Positions 6,310 through 7,100 of a stretch of 64,000 bases of DNA are shown here, in pieces. Numbering within the stretch: position 1 is the first letter of the stretch; every line of letters begins with the position of its first letter. The stretch lies in NCBI GenBank assembly GCA_029881795.1, contig JAOULX010000011.1:41083-105082 (forward strand). The letters run 5' to 3'. The notes under the pieces were generated by a model. That model made no database searches. It was not told the DNA's origin and saw only the letters and a list, made by a program, of their open reading frames with translations. This DNA is from Gammaproteobacteria bacterium (lineage in GTDB: Bacteria > Pseudomonadota > Gammaproteobacteria > SZUA-229). Both the position numbers and the translations under genes were made by a program.

Positions 6310-7100
6310 TTTTGTAAAGTGTAGATACAAGGTTGAGGTCGACTGCATGGATGCAGGAGGTAGAGCAACGCAGGAGCGGTTGCCGAGAGGTACGAACCCC
6401 AACGGTTTAAAATGTAAGAGTAAAGTTAAAGGCGTGGGTTCGCGTACCCACAGGCGTAAGTCAAAAGCAACCGATGGTTGACCGGTAGCAAGTCACTTTT
6501 CTGTCAACAGCTACAGAAAACTAACGAAAAGAAAGCCGCCCCGTTAATCAAGCTCTCATTAAAAAGCAATGAGAGTACCCTCGTCAGTCGCAATATCGAC
6601 GGCTGCTGCGGACAAATTCGATTTTTAATTTGAACGTGCCGCTTTTTGCACGGCCCGAAGGGCGAGCATCCTGAAGATGCGAGTAACAATCCAAACATTC
6701 TATTCGGCCTGTCCATGGGTCTCACCTTTCAGGCTGCCTAGAAAGCAGGCATTCAATATTGTCCTTTCCTCTGCTTGCTTAAATGGGTGGGTGAATCAAA
6801 GACAAAAAACACTCTTTCTTTTTAGTTTTTGATTTTTCTTTATGTTTTTGATTTACACCTCCCCATTAGAGCAAGCCGAAGCATGAGTGATTTCTGTGGG
6901 GCTTTCTGCGAGGATGTCTGAGCATGTTGTTTATGCGAGTTCCGCAGCAGCCACAGAAATTAGGAGTAATGAGGGAAACTTTATCGCTGTTTGATGATGG
7001 CTTGTGAACTGGGGCGTATTCTTTGGGTTACGTTTCTTGTGTACGAGCAAGAAAGGTAACACGCCCGTCGGTGCGGGAACCGACAGTTTTGACTTAGATT
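6310..7100. repeat. Copy A of an ORF-less, hairpin-rich mosaic repeat element (modules X, W, Y) immediately after the tsaD stop codon
   Basis: Modules are shared with 30440-31110. X is 6336-6400 (contains palindrome CTGCATGGATGCAG). W is 6480-6600, reverse-complement of 30960-31095, and contains GAAAGCCGCCC plus hairpin CTCTCAT-AAAAAGCA-ATGAGAG. Y is 6822-6965, direct match to 30832-30985: GGGGCTTTCTGCGAGGATG...GAGTTCCGCAGCAGCC. There is an internal inverted repeat GGCTGCTGCGG (6585-6597) / CCGCAGCAGCC (6940-6950). Confidence 0.55.

Follow-up and report, generated by a model that had tools for sequence, protein, structure and literature searches.

The function of the TwoAYGGAY RNAs has, to our knowledge, remained unknown since 2010; they are placed in the same Rfam clan as the Csr/Rsm sponges CsrB, RsmY and RsmZ. 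Among dispersed repeats, MITEs are non-autonomous DNA transposons with target-site duplications, insertion polymorphism and near-identical copies from recent bursts. REPs are simple palindromes of about 25-40 nt, and REPINs, which Bertels and Rainey are said to have described in 2011, are reportedly REP doublets mobilised by RAYT transposases. Only in 2026 were the TwoAYGGAY RNAs recognised as larger, repeat-flanked and paired elements: in Pseudomonadota they have extra hairpins, a long basal stem as well as a 3' pseudoknot, with 5-6-nt repeats upstream, REPs downstream and an arrangement in divergent doublets, while REPIN/REP elements are associated with their loci in SBW25, and a mobile-element-like expansion has been suggested (Li et al., bioRxiv 10.64898/2026.09.22.753630). 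The intergenic region described here probably harbours a divergent pair of genes, or gene-like units, each specifying a highly structured RNA of about 250-350 nt; the family to which they belong is multicopy and occurs in uncultured sediment Gammaproteobacteria.

In the window, i.e. the whole 64-kb stretch of DNA that was analysed, the stop codon of tsaD is located at 6307-6309 and is followed by a histidine-kinase gene on the minus strand (7282-10104). The absence of a credible ORF in this region, claimed in a preliminary description of the same DNA, was borne out: the longest ORF between the two genes has 76 aa, and the reading frames in 6310-7281 are all broken because homologous copies of the units are 1-2-nt indels apart. 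The region was also said to start where the homology between tsaD and its duplicate ends, and indeed the match of 5914-6313 to 11739-12139 (98.8% identity) stops 4 nt past the stop codon. The three hairpins named in that description are all present (CTGCA-TGGA-TGCAG at 6343-6356, GCCC-GAA-GGGC at 6653-6663 and GCATC-CTGAA-GATGC at 6666-6680). Its view of one 0.8-kb mosaic of three shuffled modules (X, W and Y) has to be replaced, even though self-BLAST confirmed that parts of copy A recur at 30440-31130. Module X (6333-6396) is similar to the reverse complement of 30667-30730 (89%, E=2e-16), W (6472-6612) to the reverse complement of 30972-31110 (88.7%, E=4e-44), and Y together with W' (6820-7037) corresponds in direct orientation to 30835-31067 (69.8%, E=4e-18); an inverted W is also found within copy A (6515-6612 versus 6941-7037, 69%). 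W and Y are parts of one unit of about 250 nt, while X is a separate, independent 47-nt cassette with two GGA-loop hairpins, inserted at 6340-6386 and 30677-30723. Copy A is a head-to-head pair of divergent units (6456-6801, minus strand, and 6845-7102, plus strand) with an AT-rich spacer between them, and copy B is a second such pair (30431-30835, minus strand, and 30865-31132, plus strand). The modules appeared to be re-ordered because each locus is a head-to-head pair whose members belong to different subtypes. The outer limits change as well, the end of copy A being at about 7102 rather than 7100 and the start of copy B at 30431.

According to the comparative model, a unit starts after a short array of 5-6-nt repeats (TTTGAY), and its basal stem P1 carries two arms. 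The long arm is built from the helices Pa and P2, hairpin Pc and an invariant core that has a K-turn-like bend, and the second arm is formed by hairpin Pd. The 3' domain comprises hairpins Pe and Pf, with the loop of Pf pairing with bases just upstream as a pseudoknot, and a U-rich hexamer tail comes next. The features of the window are as follows.

6331-6405, minus strand: REP-like hairpin, consensus GTTGGGGTTCGTWCCTCACCCCAAC(CTAC), located behind the left unit of pair A, after its 3' tail
6340-6386, plus strand: first copy of cassette X, a 47-nt insert with two hairpins carrying GGA in their loops
6407-6457, minus strand: extra tandem terminal hairpin module (Pf-like), then CCUUUAACUU (nhmmer, profile 219-269, E=0.0012)
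6456-6801, minus strand: left unit of pair A, Pa class T, 'mid-domain' variant (nhmmer)
6802-6844, no strand: AT-rich spacer between the 5' ends of pair A, with the 5-6-nt repeats TTTAG, TTTTGAT and TTCTTT
6845-7102, plus strand: right unit of pair A, canonical form, Pa class F (nhmmer E=7e-74)
6861-6865 with 7010-7014, plus strand: P1 of the right unit of pair A
6889-6899 with 6951-6961, plus strand: Pa of the same unit
6906-6952, plus strand: its invariant core CUGCGAGGAUGUCUGAGC...GCGAGUUCCGCAGCAGCC, with K-turn-like tandem G.A
Within 6845-7102, plus strand: its Pd and Pe hairpins
7067-7084, plus strand: its Pf hairpin, with a terminator-like site
7085-7102, plus strand: its U-rich hexamer tail
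12216-12460, minus strand: decayed single type-2 copy behind the partial tsaD duplicate (type-2 profile, nhmmer E=1.7e-16 and 3.2e-11)
30431-30835, minus strand: left unit of pair B, 'type 2', TwoAYGGAY-like (Rfam TwoAYGGAY, homologue fold)
30865-31132, plus strand: right unit of pair B, canonical, Pa class T (nhmmer E=8e-65)
31096-31112, plus strand: Pf of the right unit of pair B, then tail GCUGUUGACGUUGACUUUGG

The left unit of pair A matches the unit profile in two segments (profile positions 100-252 at 6612-6459, nhmmer E=8e-35, and 3-52 at 6803-6755). An alternative domain of about 140 nt (6613-6752), which contains both the GCCC/GGGC and the GCATC/GATGC hairpins, replaces the usual invariant core, and P1, Pa, Pd, Pe and Pf are retained in the fold. 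This mid-domain variant was also found in four other sequences. A UUCG tetraloop of the mid domain was considered as an RNA hallmark and dropped; it is not conserved in the homologues. The extra Pf-like module behind this unit contains a terminator-like site (6452-6433), and similar duplicated 3' modules are present in four sequences. The spacer of pair A is presumed to be a bidirectional promoter region. The MFE fold of the right unit matches the comparative helices (z=-2.67).

A separate REP-like hairpin accompanies the units. It also lies behind the unit tail in six other sequences, and 7/7 matches to its strict pattern closely follow the 3' end of a unit in the same orientation. In the window, cassette X separates its arms (6331-6339 and 6387-6405), within the 3' UTR region of tsaD on the plus strand. 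The cassette hairpins in this copy are CUGCA-UGGA-UGCAG and GCAAC-GCAGGAGCG-GUUGC; over 48 nt it has 96% identity to the copy at 30676-30723, and the second stems of the two differ by a compensatory change (GCAAC/GUUGC versus GUAAC/GUUAC). The relatives L001 and L002 lack the cassette at the tsaD-side site, and X-like cassettes interrupt other units in three sequences.

In the left unit of pair B, a long basal stem is combined with two hairpins, the first with the loop AUGGAC (30738-30761) and the second with AGGGAU, and with the shared 3' domain, in which Pe is followed by Pf (30445-30460). The unit is interrupted by an optional module of about 60 nt (30498-30558) and by cassette X (30677-30723), both of which are missing in relatives. 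Between the right unit of pair B and the 3' half of the left unit in pair A, identity is 88.7%. A third copy, overlooked in the preliminary description, adjoins the duplicated gene fragment (12216-12460, minus strand) and is decayed: the alignment shows a deletion of its middle part, mutations in the 3' strand of the basal stem and a destroyed Pf. It has no Rfam match.

In sediment metagenomes, nhmmer yielded 241 unit matches in 112 sequences, of which 160 span >200 profile positions; the carriers include 107 metagenome contigs and 2 MAGs, and 143 distinct full-length unit sequences were obtained. Adjacent units are arranged head-to-head in 64 of 65 cases. The metagenomes contain 68 head-to-head pairs in about 60 gene contexts, and each of the 52 classifiable pairs joins two of the three main Pa classes, with no homotypic pair. 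Spacers in the 68 pairs are 18-101 bp long, and many have a common conserved, oriented sequence; those of some pairs measure only 18-30 bp and can hardly accommodate two promoters. The sigma-70-like promoters recognised there are weak and no commoner than in shuffled sequences, and the spacer showed no convincing conserved -35/-10 elements. Upstream of a unit, the motif T[TA]GA[CT] has a frequency of 1.75 per 40 nt versus 0.16 at random positions, with a spacing of 6 nt in 139 cases, and microsatellite expansions of the upstream repeat were found in three sequences. The copies are diverged, their pairwise identity having a median of 63% and a 95th percentile of 79%.

The fold was evaluated on an alignment of 45 diverse units with a mean column identity of 58%. 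Alifold predicted 36 pairs, 22 of them with compensatory changes. For a 45-pair structure, 92.5% of cells pair versus 78.4% in shuffles (0/500) and 36-44% with the partners slid, and double-change cells number 304 versus 111 in shuffles. Mutual information alone recovered Pa, Pd, Pe and the pseudoknot pairs. The 3' domain is made of two hairpins in 136/143 units, and pseudoknot complementarity is present in 80% of units versus 35% of shuffles. The sense strand is fixed because G.U pairs are common on the aligned strand (GU at 64:130 in 44 sequences, UG at 67:125 in 43, UG at 36:151 in 22 and GU at 31:156 in 19). This comparative support is much stronger than the z-scores of single-sequence RNA folds (-2.67, -2.38 and -1.75). 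A spread restricted to master copies with an intact structure could likewise produce covariation among dispersed copies. The Pf hairpin is short with an interrupted U-tract, and one subtype is entirely devoid of the U-tail; terminator-like sites are found at unit ends.

A K-turn consists of a canonical stem, a 3-nt bulge and then tandem sheared G.A pairs opening a second stem. The invariant core resembles this motif, with GGAU-(G)UCU-GA-GC opposite GC-GA-GUUCC (alignment columns 63-75 and 121-132), and the bulge may have 4 nt; these bases show no covariation because they are invariant. The stretch CUGAUGAG...GAAC was considered as hammerhead-like, a reading that was rejected since the counterparts of C3 and G5 differ between subtypes.

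The main unit is absent from Rfam 15. No Rfam family matched the window at gathering thresholds, copy A gave only miRNA-like hairpin noise at E<=10, and a literature search with the invariant core sequence returned unrelated primers only; keyword searches likewise gave nothing relevant. The units are not related to GOLLD, ROOL, HEARO or group II domains, for which Rfam gave no match. The other possibility raised at the outset, membership in a known RNA family, applies in part: the left unit of pair B and its homologues show weak to borderline similarity to TwoAYGGAY (RF01731), and canonical units show no match to this family even at E<=10. The left unit of pair B scores 29.9 bits (30620-30788, minus strand, E=0.02), below the gathering threshold of 43 bits, as do the type-2 homologues with 30-36 bits (30.5-35.6), except L059 with 43.8 bits. 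The consensus fold of 12 type-2 homologues is conserved and consists of a basal stem common to two sequential hairpins; their arms are the hairpins that carry AYGGAY loops in the TwoAYGGAY family. Loop 1 of type-2 units contains AUGGAC/AUGGAU and loop 2 AGGGAU, with about 1.08 AYGGAY per unit, so that AYGGAY in both hairpin loops is found only in part. The topology of canonical units is the same, with the long arm and Pd emerging from P1. Since the main unit shares its leader, basal stem and 3' domain with type 2, it represents a TwoAYGGAY-type chassis that carries another head. The units may be homologous to the Pseudomonas elements, as suggested by the common organisation, compared by description, and the weak RF01731 scores.

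The post-tsaD locus is occupied by a pair in 3/3 relatives examined, and the ftsY-ftsE locus in 4/4. Compared with the orthologous units of L001, the left unit of pair A has 90.7% identity in its 3' half and the right unit 92.5%, while fourfold sites of tsaD are 39.9% identical between the window and L001, i.e. silent sites are saturated where orthologous units remain 90-92% identical. The concern that relatives might carry the same sequence as ordinary intergenic DNA was thus justified as to the shared position at two loci; the units are not ordinary intergenic DNA, because they are far more conserved than silent sites. As judged from these sequence comparisons, orthologous units are under purifying selection and can be regarded as neither decaying junk nor recent insertions.

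Beyond the repeat structure, fold, strand, pair architecture, conserved positions and selection demonstrated by these comparisons, both units would be transcribed outwards from the spacer, ending at Pf, and may function as protein-binding regulatory RNAs. The GGA-loop forms (type 2 and units bearing cassette X) would titrate a protein of the CsrA/RsmA type, and the canonical head would bind another, separate partner. A Csr-sponge role was rejected for canonical units and cannot explain them, because GGA is not enriched (4.47 per unit versus 4.71 expected) and AYGGAY is below expectation (0.19 per unit versus 0.29); their loops are U-rich, and their one invariant GGA is predicted to pair with an invariant UCC. 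The family is presumably ancient and would have spread by a mobile-element-like process before becoming fixed.

The head-to-head pair could instead be mobile but non-autonomous: a doublet of about 0.6 kb, resembling a giant REPIN or MITE, that is devoid of a host role and moved by a transposase or reverse transcriptase encoded elsewhere, its fold being conserved through recognition by the mobility machinery as single-stranded DNA or as an RNA intermediate. Such mobility is suggested by the number of gene contexts (about 60) with an often common oriented spacer, by hexamer arrays at both ends, adjoining REP-like hairpins, a preference for gene 3' ends (80 convergent versus 39 co-directional downstream genes) and the coming and going of modules (X, mid and the 60-nt insert); the preprint likewise suggests mobile-element-like expansion (bioRxiv 10.64898/2026.09.22.753630). 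However, a passively inserted sequence is not expected to stay 90-92% identical where silent sites are saturated, the examined orthologous loci are all occupied, and the copies are old. The flanking hexamers are inverted, not direct, and are therefore not target-site duplications. The fetched flanks contain no recurrent gene for a transposase, RT, IscB, TnpB or RAYT-like protein, in agreement with the transposase-free state already described for the element. Viral contigs contain no units (12 matches to a 16-nt pattern were due to chance) and plasmids no unit match, and a phage or plasmid origin was rejected. We therefore consider a purely mobile nature unlikely. Of the two options originally offered, a MITE-like element or a structured ncRNA family, the latter describes the data better, and the family, with a median identity of about 63%, does not behave as a recent MITE insertion would.

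The orientation of the units relative to their neighbours is also relevant to a possible action in cis, either as a sensor-plus-terminator in which read-through would produce antisense RNA into the convergent gene, or as an insulator or stabiliser at the 3' end of that gene. In 80/119 cases the gene facing the 3' end of a unit is convergent, with a median distance of 57 nt. The invariant core is reminiscent of a centre for binding a ligand or protein, and a hairpin of the 3' domain has possible alternative pairings, the pseudoknot versus an extra helix Pg (GGGCG/CGCCC). Pg, however, is only weakly above expectation (at least 6 pairs in 63% of units versus 33% in shuffles), and one third of the units have a co-directional downstream gene. 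The neighbouring genes are ordinary (GGDEF/EAL, ABC, LysR, kinases, methyltransferases) and have no common function, and a unit end is not a terminator for the incoming gene because its reverse complement has no U-tract, so that regulation in cis appears improbable. Least credible of all, with hardly any chance of being correct, is the coding of small proteins or of a type I toxin-antitoxin pair. The candidates would be the ORF of 76 aa (7004-7234) and, within the 3' domain, a hydrophobic frame of 30 aa, and one of the short frames reads FFxLxF in two copies; on the other hand, substitutions are paired across helices with no codon periodicity, start codons are not kept (e.g. ATG versus ACG between copies), and this reading was rejected on the frame-breaking indels of 1-2 nt among homologues.

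Returning to a pair of structured RNA genes as the preferred explanation, it is tempting to speculate that the shared chassis (5' hexamer array, basal stem and 3' Pe/Pf pseudoknot domain) is a platform for interchangeable heads and that canonical units form a new class of structured RNAs with a protein or ligand partner of their own, whose expression would come from dozens of obligately heterotypic divergent gene pairs in each genome. Equally tentatively, the heads might comprise the AYGGAY hairpins, the K-turn core arm, the 'mid' domain and the 47-nt GGA-hairpin cassettes. If so, TwoAYGGAY RNAs would be one head type in a larger modular RNA superfamily. At this locus the TwoAYGGAY chassis bears a wholly different, invariant head, and such pairs, whose members always differ, can persist at fixed loci under strong purifying selection; these properties make both a pure 'selfish repeat' and a pure 'Csr sponge' less likely. 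The 143 sequences, the well-supported fold and the natural domain-swapped variants provide a set for experiments.

Among the known systems, MITEs differ in leaving empty sites, while all orthologous loci are occupied here, and in direct rather than inverted flanking repeats and near-identical burst copies, which were not seen (median identity 63%, 95th percentile 79%). Like REPINs and REP-BIMEs, the units are dispersed intergenic repeats that form inverted doublets, prefer gene 3' ends and combine with other short motifs in mosaics. Unlike them, they are 250-400 nt long, have at least six covarying helices, long-range pairing and a pseudoknot, lack a RAYT gene in the fetched flanks and are far more divergent. 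Guide-RNA scaffolds of the IS200/IS605 group (HEARO/IscB and TnpB omega RNAs) are likewise pseudoknotted RNAs, about 150-300 nt long and present in many copies, whose spread accompanies that of a mobile element, and the flanking TTGAT/TTGAC motifs resemble target motifs of some members. Here, however, there is no adjacent IscB or TnpB gene, no HEARO or IS605-orfB Rfam match and no copy-specific guide-like segment, and positions are conserved between species. With respect to Csr/Rsm sponges, the left unit of pair B with cassette X is predicted to display four hairpins whose loops contain or adjoin GGA (AUGGAC, AUGGAU, CAGGAG and AGGGAU), and GGA is not enriched in canonical units; in contrast to the units, these sponges have no conserved complex fold and do not occur in many dispersed copies.

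The closest resemblance is to the extended TwoAYGGAY RNAs of Li et al. Both are multicopy intergenic structured units whose basal stem carries two sequential arms, and by description both have an elongated basal stem, extra hairpins (Pe and Pf here) and a 3' pseudoknot. Upstream 5-6-nt repeats (GATTT, GATCT and GCTTT fit the GMTBT(T) motif), downstream REP-type hairpins, a strong excess of divergent doublets and variants with added GGA-loop hairpins, provided here by cassette X, are further common traits. The canonical unit differs in lacking AYGGAY loops and in its long arm with an invariant core of about 45 nt and a K-turn-like motif. The doublets have 5' ends 18-101 bp apart (median about 40 bp), always join two different subtypes and reside in uncultured sediment Gammaproteobacteria, not Pseudomonas. 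Finally, whereas the preprint describes large differences in copy number between strains (bioRxiv 10.64898/2026.09.22.753630), the pairs found here occupy stable positions across species, and the units are clearly under purifying selection.

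Between the tsaD stop codon (6307-6309) and the histidine-kinase gene (7282-10104, minus strand) there is no credible gene, as the preliminary description stated for 6310-7100: the longest open reading frame is of 76 aa. The three hairpins named in it are located at 6343-6356, 6653-6663 and 6666-6680, and parts of this region (copy A) do recur at a second locus (copy B). In self-BLAST of the window, the reverse complements of 30667-30730 and 30972-31110 align with 6333-6396 (89%) and 6472-6612 (88.7%), respectively; 6820-7037 aligns with 30835-31067 in the same orientation (69.8%), and an inverted repeat internal to copy A relates 6515-6612 to 6941-7037 (69%). 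No above-threshold match to Rfam 15 was found in the whole window. The division into three modules, X, W and Y, fared differently. Alignment of the window copies with four loci of two Gammaproteobacteria MAGs merges Y and W into a single unit of about 250 nt, and both copies are head-to-head pairs of units; the apparent reordering and re-orientation of modules is a product of comparing pairs in which the left member differs in subtype from the right one.

A degenerate pattern of the most conserved part of the unit matched 107 contigs in metagenomes of just a few sediment samples. A profile search of the window and 111 loci yielded 241 unit matches, 160 of which span >200 profile positions; 143 different full-length sequences entered an alignment. 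The median pairwise identity between copies is 63%. Four units in the window are found by the canonical profile and a fifth by that of the sister form, type 2.

Units of the family in the window
6845-7102 (+), canonical unit, right member of pair A (unit profile)
6456-6801 (-), variant unit, left member of pair A (unit profile)
30865-31132 (+), canonical unit, right member of pair B (unit profile)
30431-30835 (-), type-2 unit, left member of pair B (profile match limited to the 3' domain)
12216-12460 (-), decayed type-2 copy just past the partial tsaD duplicate, overlooked previously (type-2 profile); its middle is deleted and its terminal hairpin destroyed

The alifold consensus of 45 diverse units (alignment A4, mean column identity 58%) comprises 36 pairs, 22 of them with compensatory changes. 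In the 45-pair structure obtained by our addition of the basal stem, standard pairing occurs in 92.5% of cells versus 78.4% in shuffled alignments (0/500 shuffles as high), falls to 36-44% when partners are slid by 1-3 columns, and is accompanied by double-sided changes in 304 cells versus 111 in shuffles. The same helices, together with two pseudoknot pairs, emerge from mutual information alone, and single-sequence folds of window units reproduce the comparative helices (z = -2.67, -2.38 and -1.75). The aligned strand is rich in G.U pairs, which identifies the folded strand as sense.

Elements of the unit fold
Basal stem: P1a (CCCCA/UGGGG) and P1b (CAAG/CUUG), opening onto a three-way junction
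Long arm: G.A-rich internal loops, the 11-bp helix Pa, P2 (CUGCG/CGCAG), then the invariant core
Invariant core: UUUCUGCGAGGAUGUCUGAG, hairpin Pc and CGAGUUCCGCAGCAGCC, beyond P2 in the long arm
Pd: hairpin forming the other arm
3' domain: hairpins Pe and Pf

Helix Pa covaries at 10 of its 11 pairs. The invariant core fits a K-turn-like motif, with a stem, a 3-4-nt bulge and tandem G.A pairs, a reading made from sequence because the putative K-turn bases are invariant across units. In 136 of 143 units the 3' domain forms two hairpins and no more, and the Pf loop is complementary to the bases directly upstream of Pf in 80% of units versus 35% in shuffles.

In the variant unit of pair A the core is swapped for an alternative domain of ~140 nt (6613-6752), which houses two of the three named hairpins and is also present in contigs L041, L052, L004 and others. 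The type-2 unit shares its leader, basal-stem position and 3' domain with the canonical unit, and bears one hairpin with an AUGGAC loop and another with an AGGGAU loop. It scores 29.9 bits with the Rfam TwoAYGGAY model (threshold 43); its homologues score 30.5-35.6 bits, and one reaches 43.8. Module X is a cassette of 47 nt in which two hairpins each display GGA in the loop.

Cassette X and the REP-like hairpin in the window
30677-30723, cassette X, within the type-2 unit (pair B left), in the loop of its second hairpin
6340-6386, cassette X, in the REP-like hairpin just past tsaD, in opposite orientation relative to the adjoining unit
6331-6405, REP-like hairpin

The cassette is absent from both corresponding sites in relatives, and X-like cassettes interrupt the invariant CCGCA^GCAGCC in L044 (~1330-1376), L023 (~8603-8650) and L004 (in unit 1310-1700). 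It may be a very small mobile module adding CsrA-type sites. Further X-like cassettes lie in L081 (~450-496) and L105 (~10600-10651); the sites comprise unit loops, the invariant core and a REP-like hairpin, and a G directly follows the insert at the three sites examined (window B-left, L044/L023 and window copy A).

The family includes 68 head-to-head pairs with 5' ends 18-101 bp apart, many sharing a conserved, oriented spacer; of 65 pairs of adjacent units, 64 are divergent. Where both members belong to Pa classes K, F or T, the combinations are K-T (29), F-K (18) and F-T (5), with no homotypic pair. Hexamer repeats flank the units at both ends, where the motif T[TA]GA[CT] recurs with a spacing of 6 nt (1.75 per 40 nt upstream and 1.33 downstream, versus 0.16 at random positions), and a REP-like hairpin often follows the unit tail. 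The form GTTGGGGTTCGTTCCTCACCCCAACCTAC lies at a near-fixed distance past the 3' tail in L001 (~6268-6300), L041, L015, L031, L064 and L104. Short repeats by unit 5' ends have grown into microsatellites, (GTCAAC)x7 in the L089 spacer (~475-550) and (CTTACGA/CTTACGG)x8 in L104 (~6154-6254) and the L053 spacer.

In relatives, pairs are present after tsaD in L001, L087 and L002, and between ftsY and ftsE in L018, L074, L040 and L055, with flanking proteins 83-95% identical to those of the window. Relative to L001, tsaD of the window has a DNA identity of 78.7%, and of 39.9% at fourfold-degenerate sites, whereas the orthologous canonical unit retains 92.5% identity over 254 nt and the 3' half of its partner 90.7%. 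These shared loci, the orthologue identity set against fourfold sites and the decay of 12216-12460 indicate that intact units are old, fixed and under purifying selection and that copies without selection decay. L001 has the pair in inverted orientation with respect to tsaD, and in L087 the partner is of another subtype. In L002 / L051 (215-596) the post-tsaD pair has shrunk to a near-perfect palindrome centred on Pc, both units being without their 5' 100 nt, as if inverted copies had recombined. Pair B splits the normally compact ftsY-ftsE-ftsX operon (29582-32130; ftsY-ftsE gap 887 bp), which is likewise interrupted in four related contigs.

The window carries the 3' part of tsaD twice (5914-6313 versus 11739-12139, 98.8%), and the homology ends 4 nt past the stop codon, where the element had been said to begin. 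Relatives have the order tsaD, pair, 306-aa gene, plsY, bioH, bioC, and the window has an extra segment that comprises the kinase gene, a second, broken plsY and a chimeric bioH'-'tsaD ORF. The segment fits tandem duplication followed by differential loss; the proposed rearrangement hotspot is therefore real, with nothing showing the RNA units to be its cause. The remnants of the duplication (10820-12139) include plsY ORFs of 74 and 128 aa (10820-11446) and the chimeric ORF (11409-12134), in which the initial ~110 aa of BioH and the final ~132 aa of TsaD meet at 11739-11742. Identity is 84.7% between the plsY-bioH part and 14499-15429 but 98.8% between the tsaD part and 5914-6313, an unequal divergence for which gene conversion is one possibility. 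Elsewhere, a 38-bp near-perfect palindrome (94.7%) between a 1026-aa ORF and hemE (3186-3223) is probably a bidirectional terminator, and L079 carries an SAH riboswitch (RF01057, 58.9 bits, 2226-2295, minus strand) with no relation to the units.

The units form a multicopy family folding on one strand, arranged as heterotypic divergent pairs whose positions and sequences are maintained by selection. Each unit would be transcribed outward from the spacer and end at the Pf hairpin and a U-rich tail; terminator-like sites are present at unit ends, and promoter matches in the very short spacers are weak. The RNAs may act via bound proteins: forms with GGA loops (type 2 and cassette-X units) would titrate a CsrA/RsmA-type protein, and the canonical head would have a different partner. 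The family may have spread anciently by some mobile mechanism.

A selfish doublet element, its fold serving mobility, was considered as an alternative. The viral contigs and plasmids searched contain no members, and host function is argued by the orthologue comparison, covariation among dispersed copies alone being no proof. Other readings considered were small-protein coding and a cis-acting antisense or 3'-end element. Genes facing a unit 3' end are convergent in 80 cases and co-directional in 39, the 68 pairs occupy about 60 different gene contexts, and their neighbours are ordinary genes with no recurrent family.

The units share their organisation with the TwoAYGGAY RNAs of Pseudomonadota described in a September 2026 preprint (bioRxiv 10.64898/2026.09.22.753630), which have 5-6-nt GMTBT(T) repeats ahead of them and REP arrays behind them and are enriched as divergent doublets (68.4%), with median copy numbers of 11-23 per genome in non-aeruginosa Pseudomonas groups and a maximum of 202. 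Its authors suggested Csr/Rsm sponging and mobile-element-like expansion, leaving both open. In Pseudomonas SBW25, REP arrays lie downstream of the TwoAYGGAY RNAs, much as REP-like hairpins follow our units, and the type-2 units match the TwoAYGGAY model weakly. Unlike these RNAs, the canonical unit lacks AYGGAY (0.19 per unit, 0.29 expected) and is not enriched in GGA (4.47 versus 4.71 expected), and that of copy A has no RF01731 match at E<=10; the canonical unit is therefore filed as a variant of the TwoAYGGAY kind, outside RF01731 membership.
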